Of a DNA stretch of 8,584 nucleotides, positions 1-6,871 are shown piece by piece. The stretch lies in NCBI GenBank assembly GCA_964507075.1, contig CAZDOL010000010.1, positions 1 to 8,584 of the forward strand. The letters are read 5' to 3'. Position 1 is the first letter of the stretch. Every line of letters starts with the position of its first letter. This stretch comes from an uncultured Gammaproteobacteria bacterium. Lineage in GTDB: Bacteria > Patescibacteriota > Patescibacteriia > UBA2591 > UBA6264. The notes under the pieces are model-generated. The model was not told the origin of the DNA. It saw nothing but the letters and a program-made list of their open reading frames with translations, and made no database searches. A program made the position numbers and the translations under genes.

Positions 1-61
1 TTCTGAACCCAGCTCGCGTACCGCTTTAATTGGCGAACAGCCAAACCCTTGGGAGTTGCTT

Positions 62-95
<34 letters not shown>

Positions 96-328
96 TCGAA
101 CTTCGCCGTCGATATGAACTCTCAGGCGAAACTAACCTGTTATCCCCAGAGTAGCTTTTATCCGTTAATCTTCTCCGCTCCTATAAGCAAGAGTCGGTTC
201 ACTAAGTCCGAGTTTCCTCTCGGCGCGACTTGTAAGTCTTGCCGTCAAGCTGACTTGTGCCTTTACACGTCCAGCGCGATTTCCATCCGCGCTAAGTCAA
301 CCTTTAAACGCCTCCGTTACCTTTTGGG

Positions 329-1304
329 CATTTGTGTTAATCTAATCCTTTAAGTTTATAGTCCATAGAAGGGATAATAAATTCTTTAATCAAATTATAA
401 AATTTATTTGCTGATTCAGCTAATATCATAATTTGATATCCTTCTTTCTGCTTCCTTAATTTGCAACTTAAGTCAAATTTCGTCTGCAAAATTAGGATTA
501 ACCTTCTAATTTCCTTAACTGAAAAACATTGAGTATTAAGAATTCTAGCTCTATGATTCTTAGATTTAATTGAACCATCATCCATAAACCAAATGGCCAA
601 AGATAATGGAGTCAACCACTTATGAATCAACTTAGGAATAACTTTTTTATCCTGAGGATAAAATTGATGAGCGTAGAATCTGAAAGAACTATGACTTAAG
701 GTGTTAAACCAATATTTTTCATATGCCTTTCCATTAAATGTCTGCTTTTTAATTTGAGGCTTGGTTAAAACCCAGTCTTTAAATTCTTGATAACACCAAT
801 CAACATATTCTTTCTGTTTGAAAGAATGTTCTATCTTTAAACGATATGTCTTACCGTCATTAGATGTTTCTAGGTGTCCATCTCCTAACAACTTGCCGAT
901 AATAATCTGGCGTTGTTTAGATGTTAATTTCAATGTTTTCTTAATATTTTCAATTTTATTTGAATACATATATTTTTTGATTAGGTCTTGAGTTTATTTA
1001 AGGGCGAAATCTTAAATTTTTCCCTGATTTAAGGGTAACCCAAGTCTTTCAGTTCCCTGAAAGATCAGACTATATCATATTCCTACAAAGTGCAGGAATC
1101 TGGCGTGTAGTCGTTGAGGGGTCGTCTTTGTGACGACTTCCCTGCTGATTGCCTATCGAATCTCTATGATTCTTTTTAATAAATTTTACCATTAAGGTTT
1201 ATTAAAATTAAATAGGGTTTCCAGCATATAGCCAGTTTGCTTTTGACTTTTCAGTCAAAAGGCCCCTGAATCACAATAAAAAACGGAGAAATTGTGATCA
1301 GTTG
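329..1304 (-). mobile_element. Group I intron in 23S domain V (E. coli-equivalent site ~2262), 976 nt, carrying a LAGLIDADG ORF in its 3' portion
   Basis: Removing it restores contiguous 23S sequence GGCGGATGCCT|CCCAAAAGGTAACGGAGG at the same length as E. coli. The upstream exon ends in U (1305) and the intron ends in G (329). Minus-strand core elements match the classical group I consensus: P GGCTATATGCTGGAAAC (1217-1233), Q CAATCAGCAGG (1141-1151), R CAACGACTACACGCCAGA (1099-1116), S GATATAGTC (1068-1076). There is a P2-like hairpin CTTTTGACT-GAAA-AGTCAAAAG (1240-1261) and a P9-like hairpin TCTTTCAG-GGAA-CTGAAAGA (1045-1064), both with GNRA loops. The one-C boundary ambiguity (1304/328) does not change the spliced product. 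Confidence 0.88.
337..969 (-). CDS. LAGLIDADG homing endonuclease, double-motif (monomeric, I-SceI/LAGLIDADG_2-like), intron-encoded
   Basis: The 210-aa ORF lies entirely inside the intron. It has two LAGLIDADG motifs, IIIGKLLGDGHLE and LSLAIWFMDDGS, and a C-terminal IPSMDYKL typical of organellar/bacterial rRNA-intron endonucleases. It uses an ATG start with no obvious SD. The TAA stop is 8 nt before the 3' splice site. Confidence 0.9.
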   Translation of the reverse strand: MYSNKIENIKKTLKLTSKQRQIIIGKLLGDGHLETSNDGKTYRLKIEHSFKQKEYVDWCYQEFKDWVLTKPQIKKQTFNGKAYEKYWFNTLSHSSFRFYAHQFYPQDKKVIPKLIHKWLTPLSLAIWFMDDGSIKSKNHRARILNTQCFSVKEIRRLILILQTKFDLSCKLRKQKEGYQIMILAESANKFYNLIKEFIIPSMDYKLKGLD

Positions 1305-1607
1305 AGGCATCCGCCCCAGACAAACTAACCACCAGATACTGTCTCCCCCCCAAAGGGGGATTAAGGATCAAAAATATATAAGGGTGGTATCTCACTGGTG
1401 CTCCGAAGAGCTCCCACCTATTACTGAACAGATATACCCCTAATCCAATATCAAGCTTTAGTAAAGCTTCATGGGGTCTTTTCGTCTAACTGTGCGTAGA
1501 GCGCATCTTCACGCCCATTGCAATTTCATCGAGTCCCTCGTTGAGACAGTTGCCAAGTCGTTATGCCATTCATGCAGGTCGTAACTTACACGACAAGGAA
1601 TTTCGTT

Positions 1608-2352
1608 CAGTTTTGTTACTCTCCTAATTTTAGGAGGGATTAGTCATTTCTGCTAATCTCTTCGGCTCTCACCGAAGCTCGGACTATATCTTCCGAATAC
1701 ATAATGTTTTATGTATCTCGGTCTAGCGTATAGTCTCTGAGGATGACAAAAATTTGGCTGGCTTTTTTCGATTCATTGTTTCAATGATTCTCGCAATTCT
1801 TTCACAACCTTGTTGACTTAAATGTTTTCCTGAACGCATTATTCTTACAATTTTTGCGAATTTCCTGAAGTCATTGATTTTCGCTGTTTTTAATTGATTC
1901 TGCCGAAAAAATGGAATAATTTTATTTTCTAAATCATCCAATTTTCTCACACAGTATCGGTATAAATCTTCTCTGTGATTACCATACTTACGATTGATAT
2001 AAACCTTTCCACATTGGAAAAATTTTTCTAATTTCTTTAATACCTTTACACTCTTAGCTCCCTGAGCAACAATAAATTCTGGAAATATTTGCCAACCGGA
2101 ACTGGTAGTAGGATTTCTAAAGATGCTTACGGAAAAACATCCTTCACCATCAATGAAACCTACGATCCAACCGATTAATTTTTGCCTTTCCTGCTGATTA
2201 TCTGCAACAAATGTTTTTTTACTGTACATATAATTACCTCTATCATTAATTATCTATGGGGTAACTATACCATAGTAACATTTGTTTTGCAACTATTAAA
2301 AGTACAGACGTTCCAGCATATAGCTAGATTTTACTAAGGCAAGAAAAATCCA
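1608..2352 (-). mobile_element. Group I intron at 23S site L1931 (between U1931 and A1932, E. coli numbering), 745 nt, carrying a LAGLIDADG ORF
   Basis: Removal restores CCGTCCTAAGGT|AACGAAATTCCTTGTCG (E. coli CCTAAGGTAGCGAAATTCCTTGTCG), with U at 2353 and omega-G at 1608. The internal guide GCCTTAG (2334-2340) is complementary to exon CTAAGGT, including the terminal U.G wobble (P1). Core elements are P CTATATGCTGGAA (2311-2324), Q AATCAGCAGG (2190-2199), R TCAGAGACTATACG (1727-1740) and S GATATAGTCC (1681-1690). A P8-like hairpin lies between R and S. Confidence 0.9.
1723..2229 (-). CDS. LAGLIDADG homing endonuclease, single-motif (homodimeric I-CreI/I-CpaI-like, LAGLIDADG_1), intron-encoded
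   Basis: This 168-aa ORF has one LAGLIDADG motif, LIGWIVGFIDGEGCFSV. Its size and downstream pattern (IIPFF..., KHLSQQG, MNRKK) are typical of single-motif family members. An SD-like AGAGGT lies 7 nt upstream of the ATG. The TAG stop falls inside the ribozyme R element. Confidence 0.9.
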   Translation of the reverse strand: MYSKKTFVADNQQERQKLIGWIVGFIDGEGCFSVSIFRNPTTSSGWQIFPEFIVAQGAKSVKVLKKLEKFFQCGKVYINRKYGNHREDLYRYCVRKLDDLENKIIPFFRQNQLKTAKINDFRKFAKIVRIMRSGKHLSQQGCERIARIIETMNRKKPAKFLSSSETIR

Positions 2353-2366
2353 ACCTTAGGACGGTT
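2353..2366 (-). rRNA. rrl: 14-nt 23S micro-exon (AACCGTCCTAAGGT = E. coli 1918-1931, 3' strand of helix 69) between two group I introns
   Basis: This is the only stretch between the omega-G of the L1917 intron (2367) and the first nt of the L1931 intron (2352). Its sequence matches E. coli AACGGUCCUAAGGU except for G1921C. That change is compensated by C1909G in the opposite helix-69 strand (GGCGG/CCGUC). Confidence 0.85.
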
Positions 2367-2691
2367 CTTTCATGTTAACTCCGTTAAATAAAATTAACGG
2401 AACCTAATCGCAAATAGACACTAAATATCTAATACAATTAGCTCATAATCGCTTATGAGAGCGGACTATATCATCTCCAAAACTATATTGGAGTCTGGCG
2501 TGTAGTCTCTGAGGATTCTCCATTTTACAGGAGTCTTTCCTGCTGATTGACCGCAGTCTGACATTTTCACTGCGGTGATTAGTCTATTCTTATATAAGAC
2601 TAATACCGCGAGTAGTCAAGACATACAACGGTGTTTCCAGCATATAGCCAAATTTATTTAAGTAACTACAACCTATAACCGTTAAATCATT
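2367..2691 (-). mobile_element. Group I intron at 23S site L1917 (after U1917, helix 69 loop), 325 nt, ORF-less
   Basis: Removal restores GGCGGTAACTAT|AACCGTCCTAAGGT, with U at 2692 and omega-G at 2367. P1 forms between guide GTAGTTAC (2662-2669) and exon GTAACTAT (2692-2699), with a terminal U.G. P10 forms between ACGGTT (2677-2682) and the 3' exon AACCGT (2361-2366). Core elements are P GGCTATATGCTGGAAAC (2633-2649), Q CAATCAGCAGG (2539-2549), R TCAGAGACTACACGCCAGA (2494-2512) and S GATATAGTC (2464-2472). The P8 hairpin is CTCCAA-TATAGT-TTGGAG. No ORF of meaningful length is present. Confidence 0.9.
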
Positions 2692-3588
2692 ATAGTTACC
2701 GCCGGCGTTCATCAGCGCTTGGATTCAAAGCTCGATCAATACCGAAGTATCAACTTCACCTCTCCTCTTAACGTTCTGACACTGGCCAGGCATCAGCCCC
2801 TATATATCACCTTACGGTTTGAGCAGGGACCTATGTTTTTGTTAAACAGTCGCTTGGCGTACTTTAGCTGCGCCCCCTCTGTCCGAAAACAGAGAGAGAG
2901 TCCTTATTCCGAAGTTTCGGACGCTTTTTTGCCGAGTTCCTAAACGAGGGTTCTCTCGTCCACCTGAGGATACTCTCCTCACCCACCTGTGTCGGTTTGC
3001 GGTACGGATAATATTAGCTTAGCCCTAGAAACTTTTCTTGGCTTCCACTCCCTTCAAATCTCCCCTTGCGAGAATTTTATTCGTAGCAGGCATTACATCT
3101 TCCGGATTTGCCTAGAAGACCCGCCCAACTACTTAAACGCGTATAGCCAGAACACGCTCAAAGCTTACAGAAGCGTCATTCCATCAGATGCTAATATTAG
3201 AGACGGAATATTAACCGTCTGTCCATTATCTTTACCCTTCGGCAAAGACTTAGGGCCGCCTAACCCTGGGTTGACAATCAGTGCCCAGGAAACCTTGGGT
3301 TTGCGGTGGTTCGGATTCTCACCGAACTTTTTACTACTTATGCCAACATTCTCTCTTCTTTGCGCTCCACCAGACCTTACAGTCTGACTTCACCGCACAA
3401 AGAATGCTCCCCTACCACGCCGATGCAAAACATCGACGTTCTCATCTTCGGTATTGAATTTAGCCCCGGTACATTTTCGGCGCAAGACAACTTGATCAGT
3501 GAGCTGTTACGCTTTCTTTAAAGGATGGCTGCTTCTAAGCCAACCTCCTGATTGTCCAAGTCATTTCACTACCTTTTACACTTAATCC

Positions 3589-3620
3589 TCAGCCAATAAA
3601 GGCTGATCCGTCTGAGACGG
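3589..3620 (-). other. Small 23S expansion (two mini-hairpins) absent from E. coli
   Basis: About 32 extra nt sit between GGTCCCTAAATTTT and GGATTAAGTG relative to E. coli GGUCCCAAAGUCAUGGUUAAGUG. They fold as CCGTC-TCA-GACGG (3608-3620) and TCAGCC-TTTATT-GGCTGA (3589-3606). Confidence 0.5.
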
Positions 3621-4164
3621 AAAATTTAGGGACCTTAGATTGAGATCTGGGCTGTTTCCCTTTCGACTGATGGAGCTTAGCCCCCATAGTCTGACTCCGC
3701 TCTATTTTGGCTCTGGTATTCGGAGTTTGATTGAATGAGGTAGGATTACTCCACCCTCACTCATCCAGTAGCTCTACCCCCAGAGAGTAAAGAACGGGCT
3801 AGCCCTAAAGCTATTTCGGGGAGAACCAGCTATCACTGAGTTCGATTGGCTTTTTACCCCTATCCACAGCTCATCCCATGATGTTGTACGGTCAACGGGT
3901 TCGGGCCTCCTCTGTCAATTAAGACAGACTCACCCTGGCCATGGATAGCTCACTCAGTTTCGGGTCTTTCCCATCATATTGATAATTCGCACTTTTAATA
4001 CTCGCTTTCGCTTCGGCTTCGTCTATATTTAGACTTAACCAAACATGATAAGAAAACTCGTTGGCTCATTCTTCAATAGGAACGCCATCACCCTTCGACA
4101 AGCTCAGGGCTCTGACTCTTTGTTAGCATATGGTTTCAGGTACTTTTCATCGCCCTAACCGGGC

Positions 4165-4203
<39 letters not shown>

Positions 4204-4420
4204 ATCACCAAAAGTATTTAGTCTTAGGCGATAGTCCGCCTTGATTCATGCCAAATTTCACGGGTTTGGCATTACTCGGGTATAATTAACTATTAAAATT
4301 TAAATTTTTTTAATTTACGGGACTTTCACCCCCTATGGTTAGCAATTCCATGCTATTGAACTAAAAATTTAAACCCTAACTTTGCTCAGTAAAAAACAAA
4401 ACATTAACTACCCCACAACA

Positions 4421-4509
4421 CTTTATAGAATATTTTAGCTTTACTACCTTTCATTAAATAAAAGAAATATCCGAAGATAAGACTCCTATAAAATTTAGAT
4501 TCTATAAAG
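4421..4509 (-). other. AT-rich ~89-nt structured expansion segment (or IVS) in 23S domain I
   Basis: It is closed by a perfect 11-bp inverted repeat, CTTTATAGAAT (4421-4431) / ATTCTATAAAG (4499-4509). On the minus strand it is capped by TATC-TTCG-GATA (UUCG tetraloop, ~4468-4479). E. coli has only ~30 nt across the wider interval (~4380-4515), whereas this sequence has ~160 nt. Confidence 0.5.
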
Positions 4510-4934
4510 TTTAGACTGTTTCCCTTTCGCTCGCCGCTACTAAGGAAATCGCAGATAAAATTAAAATTTTATCATTTCGCTCTCTTTTCCTCCGGGTACT
4601 GAGATGTTTCACTTCCCCGGGTACCCCACTTAATTTGCATTAAGTTAATTCGTCTTCAACGAATTGGGTTTCCCCATTCGGAAATCCTCGGATCAAAGGT
4701 TGCTTGCCACCTTCCCGAGGCTTATCGCAGGCTGCTACGTCCTTCATCGGCTTTTGGTGTCTAGGCATCCACCATATGCACTAATTAATTCTCTAATTCA
4801 TCATTTAATTCATAATATAATATAAATTAAATAATATTTTGTTGGCGTGTGTTCACCCCATTAAATATACTCAAAACGAGATTACCTAATAAGGTTAAGA
4901 TGCTCTATACTAACTTATTTAATTTTCAAAGAAC

Positions 4935-4962
4935 AATTAAAAAAACCGCCTAGTCAGCGGTT
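4935..4962 (-). terminator. Rho-independent terminator candidate downstream of pyrG
   Basis: The minus strand reads AACCGC-TGACTAG-GCGGTT followed by TTTTTAATT. This gives a 6-bp stem (4 GC), a 7-nt loop and an effective U7 tract. It lies ~185 nt after the pyrG stop and ~140 nt before the 23S 5' end. Confidence 0.5.
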
Positions 4963-5145
4963 GAGCTTTGGTTTTATAATAACCAAAAAAATTAACCGTC
5001 CGACTGAATGGGAATATGTTTAATAGTTTTTACTAAAATAAACATTTCAAAAATAATTTTTAGAGATTAAATTATTTTATTTTTGCACAGTGATAATTTA
5101 ACCTCAGGTTTTTTTAATTAGTTTTATTATAAACGAAAACCTTAA

Positions 5146-6783
5146 TTAGTCAATTGTGGATAAGTCCTGGGAATTTGAAAGACAAGCTTTAATGAAAGCT
5201 ACAAATAAAGGATGTGGATTCATAAATCTAGATTTATATTCAGGATGAAATTGGGTAGCTATAAAAAAAGGATGCCCTGGAATCTCAATAATCTCCACCA
5301 GTTTATTATCTGGAGAAAAACCGCTAATTACCAAACCTTTCTTTTCCATAATCTCCCTATATTCATTATTAAATTCGTAACGATGACGATGTCTTTCAAA
5401 AATTTCGCTTTTTTTGTAAATTTTAGCTGCCCTACTATTCTTCTTTAAACAACAAGGATAAGCGCCCAACCTAATAGTGCCTCCATATTGCTTGTTAGCA
5501 ATCATTTCCTTTTGGTTCGGCATAAGATGAATAACGTGATATTTGGAACGGGAATTAATTTCTTCTGACGTGGCTTCTTTTAATTGGCAAACGTTCCTGG
5601 CAAATTCAATTACCGCCATCTGCATACCGTAACAAAGACCAAAACAAGGTTTTCTCTTTTCTCGGCAATATTTAATAGTTTTAATCATTCCCTCAGACCC
5701 CCTTTTTCCCCAGCCTTGAGTAATAATCAGCCCTGCCATCTTTTTTAAATCTTTTGTTCCATACTTCTCTACGTCTCGGCTATTTATCCAATGAAAAACG
5801 GGACGACAATTATTAATCCAGCAACCATGTTTAACTGCTTCAATTACTGAAATGTAGGAATCAGCTAAAGTGAATTTTCCAGTTTTAAAATATTTGCCAA
5901 TTATTCCAATATGAAGCGTATGACGGGCTTTATTAATAATCCTTGATGCCCTAGACCAATCATGGAGATTAGTTTTGCGAATGGGTAGTTTTAACTTTTT
6001 TAAAATTTTCTTACCCAACTTATCATCCTCAAAATTCAGAGGAATATCATAAATAGATTCTACATCGGGAGCAGAAATAACATCAGTTTCACTGATGTTG
6101 CAAAAAATAGAAATTTTTCCTTTGCGGACATCATCTAAGGGACTAGATGACCTGGCCAGAATAAAATCAGGCTGAATGCCAGCTGAATTCAATGTACGAA
6201 CAGCATACTGAGTCGGTTTGGTTTTCATCTCGCCAATCTTAGCGGGAACAGGTAAATAACTAAGCATAACAAAAAGAACATGATGGGAATTTTCTAGTTT
6301 CATCATTCTAGCTGCTTCTAAAAATATAGCATTTTGATATTCTCCGATTGTTCCCCCAACTTCTATCAATACTATTTCAGCCTTAGCTTTGTGGCCTGCC
6401 TTTTTAATGCGACCAATAACTTCGTTGGGAATATCTGGAATAACCTCTACGCATCGGCCATTATAATCCAAGTTCCTTTCTTTTTGAATAACTGCATTGT
6501 AAACACTTCCAGTGGTCATATAATTTAAACTGGAAATATTTTGGTTTAAAAATCTCTCATAGTTTCCTATATCTTGATCTGTTTCTAATCCATCTTCTGT
6601 AACAAAAACTTCACCATGCTCTATTGGGTTCATGGTGCCAGCATCAACATTAATATATGGATCAATTTTAATTGCTGTAATGCGATAACCCTTACTCTGT
6701 AAAATTTTACCAATGGAAGCCGTAGCAATACCCTTACCTAAGCCCGACATTACGCCTCCAGTTATAAAAATGTATTTTGTCAT
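5146..6783 (-). CDS. pyrG: CTP synthase (glutamine-hydrolysing)
   Basis: The protein shows full-length family hallmarks. The N-terminus is MTKYIFITGGVMSGLGKG, followed by DPYINVDAGTMNPIEHGEVFVTEDGLETDQDIGNYERF. The amidotransferase motifs GLCYGMQ (nucleophile Cys) and ATQFHPEYKS (His/Glu) are present. I place the start at ATG 6783, matching the conserved MTKYIF N-terminus, rather than the TTG at 6795 used by the ORF track. The stop is TAA. Confidence 0.95.
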   Translation of the reverse strand: MTKYIFITGGVMSGLGKGIATASIGKILQSKGYRITAIKIDPYINVDAGTMNPIEHGEVFVTEDGLETDQDIGNYERFLNQNISSLNYMTTGSVYNAVIQKERNLDYNGRCVEVIPDIPNEVIGRIKKAGHKAKAEIVLIEVGGTIGEYQNAIFLEAARMMKLENSHHVLFVMLSYLPVPAKIGEMKTKPTQYAVRTLNSAGIQPDFILARSSSPLDDVRKGKISIFCNISETDVISAPDVESIYDIPLNFEDDKLGKKILKKLKLPIRKTNLHDWSRASRIINKARHTLHIGIIGKYFKTGKFTLADSYISVIEAVKHGCWINNCRPVFHWINSRDVEKYGTKDLKKMAGLIITQGWGKRGSEGMIKTIKYCREKRKPCFGLCYGMQMAVIEFARNVCQLKEATSEEINSRSKYHVIHLMPNQKEMIANKQYGGTIRLGAYPCCLKKNSRAAKIYKKSEIFERHRHRYEFNNEYREIMEKKGLVISGFSPDNKLVEIIEIPGHPFFIATQFHPEYKSRFMNPHPLFVAFIKACLSNSQDLSTID

Positions 6784-6827
6784 AAACGCAATCAATTAAT
6801 TATTAAAAAAGAAATAAGAAACAAATT

Positions 6828-6871
6828 AATGTTCCAATGTTCCAATGTTCCAATGTTCCAATGTTCCAATG
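6828..6871. repeat. Perfect tandem octanucleotide repeat, AATGTTCC x5.5 (minus strand TTGGAACA)
   Basis: Read directly from the sequence: aatgttcc at 6828, 6836, 6844, 6852 and 6860, plus aatg at 6868-6871. The array begins 2 nt after the stop codon (6874-6876) of the upstream gene and ends 44 nt before the pyrG ATG. Confidence 0.95.

Follow-up and report, generated by a model that had tools for sequence, protein, structure and literature searches.

Two group I introns flank a 14-nucleotide helix 69 exon in the 23S rRNA gene of an uncultured bacterium

Two group I introns separated by only 14 nucleotides of rRNA raise the question of whether the two ribozymes compete for the exon between them, and whether that exon is retained once both introns have left. 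We examined such a pair in a stretch of 8,584 nucleotides of DNA (the window), the minus strand of which is a bacterial 23S rRNA gene with exons and three introns (positions 1 to 4781, minus strand; matches to the Rfam model LSU_rRNA_bacteria of 1376 bits over 4781 to 1521 and 83 bits over 1462 to 1309). Exon sequence resumes after the third intron and reaches window position 1, and the gene continues past this low end of the window. The source contigs have no genes annotated on the rRNA, and the best 23S match to the window gene among the loci that we fetched was 75%. We joined the predicted exons (2760 to 2692, 2366 to 2353 and 1607 to 1530) and aligned them to E. coli rrlH, which gave a gap-free alignment over E. 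coli positions 1877–1981. Window position 2692 corresponds to U1917, positions 2366 to 2353 to 1918–1931, and position 1607 to 1932. This ungapped alignment places the insertions directly after E. coli 1917 and 1931, that is, at sites L1917 and L1931. The boundaries of the L1931 intron are unambiguous; those of the L1917 intron could be shifted over one or two A residues, and only the position used here gives both a U before the 5′ splice site and a terminal G. The first-pass annotation had separated the L1917 and L1931 introns by 14 nucleotides only, and this spacing, between what are indeed two group I introns, agrees with the alignment.

Exon 1 ends in GUAACUAU (2692–2699, minus strand; E. 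coli 1910–1917), which supplies the L1917 intron with the 5′ strand of its P1. The 14-nucleotide exon, AACCGUCCUAAGGU (2353–2366, minus strand), reads AACCGTCCTAAGGT in the DNA from 2366 to 2353 and comprises the 3′ strand of helix 69 and the linker that follows it. Exon 3 starts with AACGAAAUUCC (1597–1607, minus strand; E. coli 1932–1942). It opens with AACGAAAUU (1605–1607, minus strand), in which A replaces the usual G1933, whereas all 87 other loci with a locatable downstream exon, among the matches listed, have AGCGAAAUU at this point. A1933 gives the two 3′ exons the same opening AAC, and it leaves the L1931 intron, as read from the sequence, with a weak P10 of about two base pairs (UU/AA) in the window. 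Splicing of both introns is predicted to give the ligated sequence GGUAACUAUAACCGUCCUAAGGUAACGAAAUUCC, or the longer diagnostic string GGTAACTATAACCGTCCTAAGGTAACGAAATTCC, with the exon kept. Skipping of the exon would join GGUAACUAU to AACGAAAUUCC (diagnostic string GGTAACTATAACGAAATTCC), and the predicted intermediates would contain GGTAACTATAACCGTCCTAAGGTTGGATTTTTC if the upstream intron were removed first or CATGAAAGAACCGTCCTAAGGTAACGAAATT if the downstream intron were.

In a scan of bacterial genomes, one for each species, we looked for GTCCTAAGGT followed, after a gap of 18–48 nucleotides, by TATGCTGG, and obtained at least 120 loci. Of the matches listed, about 100 represent 23S genes that contain an L1931 intron. 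Upstream of this intron, 65 of the listed loci have an unbroken helix 69, and in 36 of the roughly 100 (35 other genomes and the window) non-rRNA sequence ending in G stands directly before AACGGTCCTAAGGT. The 5′ exon GGCCGTAACTAT lies 249–804 nucleotides upstream in 31 of the 35 other genomes that carry this double signature among the matches listed. The two introns therefore assort independently, since among these matches L1931 occurs alone in 65 loci and with the L1917 signature in 36. The hosts of double loci include Dormibacteraeota, Gammaproteobacteria, Solirubrobacterales, Nitrospira, Chloroflexi, Peribacteria and a Coxiella endosymbiont of a tick. Five more double loci came from metagenomes that we scanned for the C1921 exon variant (described below), and the window organism was present, with the same arrangement, in at least six independent metagenome assemblies (ERZ27248920, ERZ27248953, ERZ27248954, ERZ27248939, ERZ27248936 and JGI 3300028191). 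The pairing of L1917 and L1931 introns is neither rare nor new, and, being both published and present in roughly one in three of the listed 23S genes with an L1931 intron, it is compatible with working ribosomes. L1931 introns as such were found, among the matches listed, in metagenome-assembled genomes (MAGs) of Actinomycetota, Acidobacteriota, Gammaproteobacteria, Nitrospirota, Planctomycetota, Armatimonadota, Chloroflexota and Patescibacteria. Two loci, L001 and L103, have sequence ending in ATG joined directly to AACTATAACGGTCCTAAGGT upstream of the L1931 intron, and in L103 the exon GGCGGCCGT lies 350 nucleotides further upstream; this points to a putative group I intron at about L1911, with a 20-nucleotide exon before the L1931 intron.

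These loci also bear on the fate of the short exon. The 14-mer differs from E. coli only at position 1921 (C for G), with a compensating G1909 in exon 1. Watson–Crick pairing of 1909 with 1921 in helix 69 holds in 37 of 37 scorable double-intron loci (31 from the genome scan, among the matches listed, five from the metagenome scan, and the window), 31 of them with C–G and six, including the window, with G–C. Positions 1909 and 1921, which belong to exon 1 and the short exon, respectively, thus covary across the L1917 intron, which argues that the 14-nucleotide exon is part of the mature rRNA. Judged from this covariation, the short exon is kept and its inclusion is the selected outcome. Skipping would delete the 3′ strand of helix 69, as had been pointed out earlier, in agreement with the E. 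coli numbering of nucleotides 1918–1931.

The upstream, L1917 intron is 325 nucleotides long (2367–2691, minus strand) and ends in G at 2367. It matches the Rfam model Intron_gpI (RF00028) with 74.7 bits against a gathering score of 50, from 2701 to 2442 and over the full model (1–253), so that its group I core is identified by a covariance-model score above the curated threshold. This intron contains no endonuclease open reading frame (ORF), the longest ORF within it being 32 amino acids. Of the 62 consensus pairs that RNAalifold gave for 15 L1917 relatives, the window sequence forms 52. P1 pairs GUAACUAU (2699 to 2692) with the guide strand GUAGUUAC (2669 to 2662; 2662–2669, minus strand), placing U1917 opposite G2669 as the wobble pair by direct reading, and the last base of the intron is G2367. 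The same P1 was recovered in the Rfam alignment, in the RNAalifold consensus and in the local minimum-free-energy fold, and GTAGTT stands at the homologous spot in nearly all L1917 introns of relatives.

The downstream, L1931 intron is 745 nucleotides long (1608–2352, minus strand), ends in G at 1608 and has a core that is interrupted by an endonuclease gene. As a contiguous sequence it scored 30.3 bits in Rfam (E 1e-5), below the gathering score of 50 and over the 3′ half only (1813 to 1660), a low and partial score that we attribute to the 507-nucleotide ORF that splits the core. We removed the 431-nucleotide P6 loop and analysed the remaining sequence with 35 ORF-less L1931 introns from other genomes (RNAalifold, 36 sequences in total). 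Of the 55 consensus pairs, 42 form in the trimmed window intron and six fall in gaps, and 35 show two-sided compensatory changes somewhere in the set. One ORF-less L1931 relative, in L026, reached 74.5 bits in Rfam; its 259-nucleotide L1917 partner was not above threshold in this run, which reported only the L1931 intron. The guide strand GCCUUAG (2334–2340, minus strand) pairs with exon nucleotides 8–14 (CUAAGGU) by direct reading, with a U1931/G2340 wobble at the 5′ splice site, and this P1 hairpin is also present in the local minimum-free-energy fold. Among the matches listed, 68 of 100 L1931 introns have the heptamer GCCTTAG at the same spot, and 97 have GCCY there. The first-pass annotation had assigned nucleotides 8–14 (CTAAGGT) and GCCTTAG to the downstream P1 with its U·G wobble, and the pairing was found as proposed, at 2340 to 2334. 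In a simple exon alignment of the L1931 introns of L002–L120, 27 of 87 end in A and six of 87 in C or T rather than the canonical G; 13 of them have an AG repeat at both ends, which leaves their boundary ambiguous by two nucleotides.

The ORF in the L1931 intron (1723–2229, minus strand; 507 nucleotides) encodes a single-motif LAGLIDADG homing endonuclease of 168 amino acids. Its translation contains the motif GFIDGEGCF, an identical protein carries the Pfam domain LAGLIDADG_1 (PF00961), and matches to LAGLIDADG meganucleases in the PDB have E values of about 1e-36. In domain, size (about 160–180 amino acids) and location within an intron, the product of this ORF (2229 to 1723) falls among single-motif LAGLIDADG proteins. 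AGAGGU lies seven nucleotides 5′ of its AUG. From its start in the P5 extension, the ORF extends over P4′, P6, the 431-nucleotide P6 loop, J6/7 and P7 to a UAG stop in the 3′ strand of P3. Because it overlaps strands of the ribozyme core, translation and ribozyme folding should be mutually exclusive on any one RNA molecule. A similar overlap of endonuclease ORF and ribozyme core has been described for Synechococcus introns (PMC1995217).

Within a single sequence, the complementarities between introns and exons go modestly beyond chance. In mononucleotide shuffles of the intron 5′ ends, the frequencies were 0.08 for P1 of the L1931 intron, 0.04 for P1 of the L1917 intron, 0.05 for a 6-base-pair P10 and 0.21 for a 4-base-pair P10. 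Such frequencies (0.04–0.21) are unconvincing alone, so the case for the pairings rests on comparative data. Both P1 and the helices of the core appear in the RNAalifold consensus of relatives, with which the window sequences agree. For P10 of the L1917 intron, two registers can be drawn. The candidate at the canonical position, GGUU (2670–2673, minus strand), abuts the 5′ side of the guide strand and pairs with exon nucleotides 1–4 (AACC); in the precursor, the same bases (2673 to 2670) could alternatively pair with the first intron bases, AAU, as the P1 extension of the RNAalifold consensus. The first-pass annotation had instead paired nucleotides 1–6 (AACCGT) with ACGGTT. This complement, ACGGUU in the RNA (2677–2682, minus strand), is a perfect match of six base pairs at 2682 to 2677, but its assignment as P10 is ambiguous, GGUU being the more canonical choice. 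The guide region (2662–2682, minus strand) reads AACGGUUAUAGGUUGUAGUUAC, a complement to the ligated exons that contains a 7-nucleotide insert or duplication.

It is quite possible, although we lean away from it, that ACGGUU/AACCGU is not a functional P10 but a chance match or a leftover of the 7-nucleotide duplication, and that the 3′ splice site is set by GGUU, P9.0 and the terminal G. ACGGUU lies seven nucleotides from the P1 guide strand, whereas the ACCGUU or GACCG of relatives with the usual AACGGU exon stands only 0–3 nucleotides from P1; GGUUAUA-GGUUGUA in the guide region looks like a tandem 7-mer, offering two alternative P1/P10 registers; and the 6-base-pair match has the shuffle frequency of 0.05 given above. 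Moreover, the C1921-variant relatives from the metagenome scan (L121–L125) have a P10 of only three or four contiguous pairs, with three in L121, L122, L124 and L125, which form a separate lineage with the same exon variant. On the other side, the P10 strand appears to track the exon: where relatives with the AACGGU exon have C, the window and L123 (AUGG) have G, a difference that matches the exon change G1921C. The motif is also unaltered in the variant strains L127 and L131 despite changes close by. With this moderate comparative support, a P10 between the L1917 intron and the start of the short exon is likely, in either the GGUU or the ACGGUU register.

Another possibility is that the introns form one cooperative unit, in which the upstream 5′ half would pair with the downstream 3′ half to excise 2691 to 1608 whole, and in which skipping would be frequent enough to matter, as a regulated event or a costly by-product. 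The two introns have near-identical core strands (GCTATATGCTGGAA, AATCAGCAGGAAAG, CCTCAGAGACTAyACGCyAGAC and GATATAGTCCG), including a common P7 3′ strand, GAUAUAGUCCG; P3 UUUGGC of the upstream intron can pair with P3′ GCUAGA of the downstream intron with two wobbles; and AAC opens exon 3 as well as the short exon. The earlier description of the catalytic cores as near-identical is thus right for the core strands, but the whole introns are 57% identical and differ in P1, P5abc, P6, P8 and P9. Skipping also has precedents in tandem group I introns, namely introns 2 and 3 of phage Twort orf142 (23-nucleotide exon) and engineered Tetrahymena pairs (24 nucleotides) (Ueda et al. 2023, PMC10136302), and, in the account given in that paper, the tandem introns of Coxiella 23S (34-nucleotide exon). 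Two routes have been distinguished, one through a hybrid large ribozyme and the other with the upstream junction acting as a distal 5′ splice site (PMC10136302). The window, with two group I introns around an exon of at most a few tens of nucleotides, is a tandem-intron locus of this kind, and, as in Twort and Tetrahymena, the ribozymes around the short exon are similar. Those exons, however, lie in protein-coding or reporter contexts, unlike the rRNA of the window, and the guide sequences there are similar or identical, whereas those of the window (GUAGUUAC and GCCUUAG) are entirely different. In the Tetrahymena model, differentiated splice-site sequences suppressed stepwise skipping (PMC10136302), so the unrelated guides of the window should suppress this route; the mismatch of GUAACUAU with GCCUUAG likewise makes skipping through a distal 5′ splice site unlikely. 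A hybrid ribozyme is the more conceivable route here, given the like core strands, the identical P7 3′ strands, the P3/P3′ match and the AAC common to both 3′ exons. As described in PMC10136302, the Coxiella pair differs from the window in exon length (34 versus 14 nucleotides), in its second site (L1951 versus L1931) and in having introns of different subgroups (IB2 and IA3), whereas the two cores in the window are of one type. Each intron in the window has a complete helix set of its own and relatives that occur singly, exon 1 covaries with the short exon, which is conserved, and local helices would be transcribed and able to fold long before their distant partners appear. We therefore regard a cooperative unit as very unlikely.

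Many bacterial 23S inserts are excised without ligation, and one or both introns might in the same way remain unspliced, being retained or cut out without ligation to leave an insert-bearing or fragmented 23S rRNA. The L1931 intron of Simkania has been reported as unspliced, according to a title cited in PMC11270868, although the text of the same paper describes rRNA inserts of candidate phyla radiation (CPR) bacteria as removed from transcripts. In the window, both introns have a group I core, a U–G wobble at the 5′ splice site and a terminal G, their relatives show compensatory changes, and an insert left within helix 69 would break the intersubunit bridge. Failure to splice is, on this evidence, highly improbable.

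The reading that we favour, and hold to be quite probable from the sequence comparisons, is that the 14-mer is 23S positions 1918–1931 lying between two independent and complete group I introns at the classical homing sites L1917 and L1931, each with its own guide and each self-splicing separately. The pairings occupy separate exon nucleotides, 1–4 or 1–6 for P10 and 8–14 for P1. The earlier claim that the exon is contested, and that this implies either ordered splicing or a risk of skipping, was overstated, because pairings with disjoint nucleotides impose neither conflict nor a splicing order. Any constraint on order would be steric or kinetic. In the mechanism that we propose, GUAGUUAC of the L1917 intron would pair with exon 1 to form P1, and GGUU or ACGGUU would align the first four to six bases of the short exon as P10; GCCUUAG of the L1931 intron would pair with the last seven bases as P1. 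Since these pairings share no nucleotides, each intron could splice out separately, and the short exon would end as the 3′ strand of helix 69. Once the upstream intron has gone, helix 69 (1906–1924) can form beside the downstream P1 (1925–1931), not over it. Two active sites 14 nucleotides apart would be too close to dock jointly, so the reactions may be sequential. The L1917 intron is probably spliced first, because it is transcribed first, compact and ORF-less; the L1931 core would have to close across a 431-nucleotide, ORF-bearing loop that is possibly also being translated. The arrangement would then exist because two mobile introns have adjacent target sites, and not because the exon has a special role.

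Published relatives have the same layout. Group I introns occupy L1917, L1931 and L2593 in the 23S gene of Synechococcus sp. C9 (Haugen et al. 2007, PMC1995217), and the plastid rrl gene of the diatom Navicula vanseea has introns at 1917 and 1931 (PMC11019260). Both share with the window the two sites, the 14-nucleotide exon, an intron class that lacks P2 and has a complex P5 (called IB4 or IC1-like), and single-motif LAGLIDADG genes that extend into the ribozyme core. They differ in having endonuclease genes in both introns, whereas the window L1917 intron is without one, and the window host, an uncultured AT-rich bacterium, has an additional, third intron at L2262. The short exon common to both introns is not discussed in PMC1995217 or PMC11019260. 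The window host might itself belong to the CPR, a guess prompted by its base composition and intron load. Positions 1917 and 1931 are also described as frequent 23S intron sites in CPR bacteria (Tsurumaki et al. 2024, PMC11270868), where sites 23IS6 and 23IS7 (1917 and 1931), like those of the window, hold group I introns with single-domain LAGLIDADG_1 genes in small-genome uncultured bacteria; the text of that paper contains no analysis of the co-occurrence of both sites per gene, and its supplement has no per-genome site table. I-ShaI, from site 23IS7, is described in the same paper as cleaving its own insertion site in vitro. By analogy with this same-site enzyme, the window endonuclease may cut an intron-less target near 1931.

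Were it to do so, the pair might move as a composite element, the L1917 intron being co-converted when the L1931 endonuclease cuts 14 bp away, with a fixed upstream-first order and a measurable by-product lacking helix 69. We consider this extended scheme doubtful. Hints of it are an L1917 intron in about a third of the L1931 carriers listed, the AAC with which exon 3 of the window, like the short exon, opens, and the distribution of endonuclease genes. Among the 33 complete double loci in the matches listed, endonuclease genes are present only upstream in five, only downstream in eight, in neither intron in 20 and in both in none; the zero, against about 1.2 expected by chance in these 33 loci, is not significant for hitch-hiking. 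L1917 and L1931 introns are somewhat more similar within a genome than across genomes (mean 0.73 versus 0.67), a comparison that is confounded by host lineage and base composition. In Dormibacteraeota MAGs (L002, L026, L058, L085 and L102), the two introns of one gene share 75–79% identity over their full length and have nearly alike P4–P6 domains. This likeness, itself confounded by lineage, suggests a recent origin of one intron from the other or an exchange between neighbours.

Elsewhere in the window, a third group I intron of 976 nucleotides follows E. coli position 2262 (329–1304, minus strand; 76.9 bits in Rfam from 1291 to 1046, full-length). It carries a two-motif LAGLIDADG_2 gene of 210 amino acids (ORF 337–969, minus strand) downstream of the ribozyme core. 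On the strand of the 23S gene, what comes before it (4782–6795) is a CTP synthase gene (5146–6795) and an AT-rich spacer rather than a 16S or tRNA gene, and ARAGORN found no tRNA in the window, so the rRNA genes appear to be unlinked. A perfect tandem repeat, 5.5 copies of AATGTTCC, lies at 6828–6871 between the CTP synthase gene and the next ORF.

The intron pair in the window is a real but ordinary addition to an arrangement that was already known, and it leaves the current understanding of group I introns unchanged. It adds a divergent AT-rich bacterium to the natural cases in which two similar ribozymes lie only 14 nucleotides apart on a strand of the bridge helix 69, with an exon shorter than those of the tandem-intron systems studied experimentally (23, 24 and 34 nucleotides). 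L1931 introns, often accompanied by L1917 introns, extend in MAGs across many bacterial phyla, far beyond the handful tabulated in 2007 (PMC1995217), and cross-talk between ribozymes and the fidelity of splice-site choice could be studied on the window locus as a natural test system.
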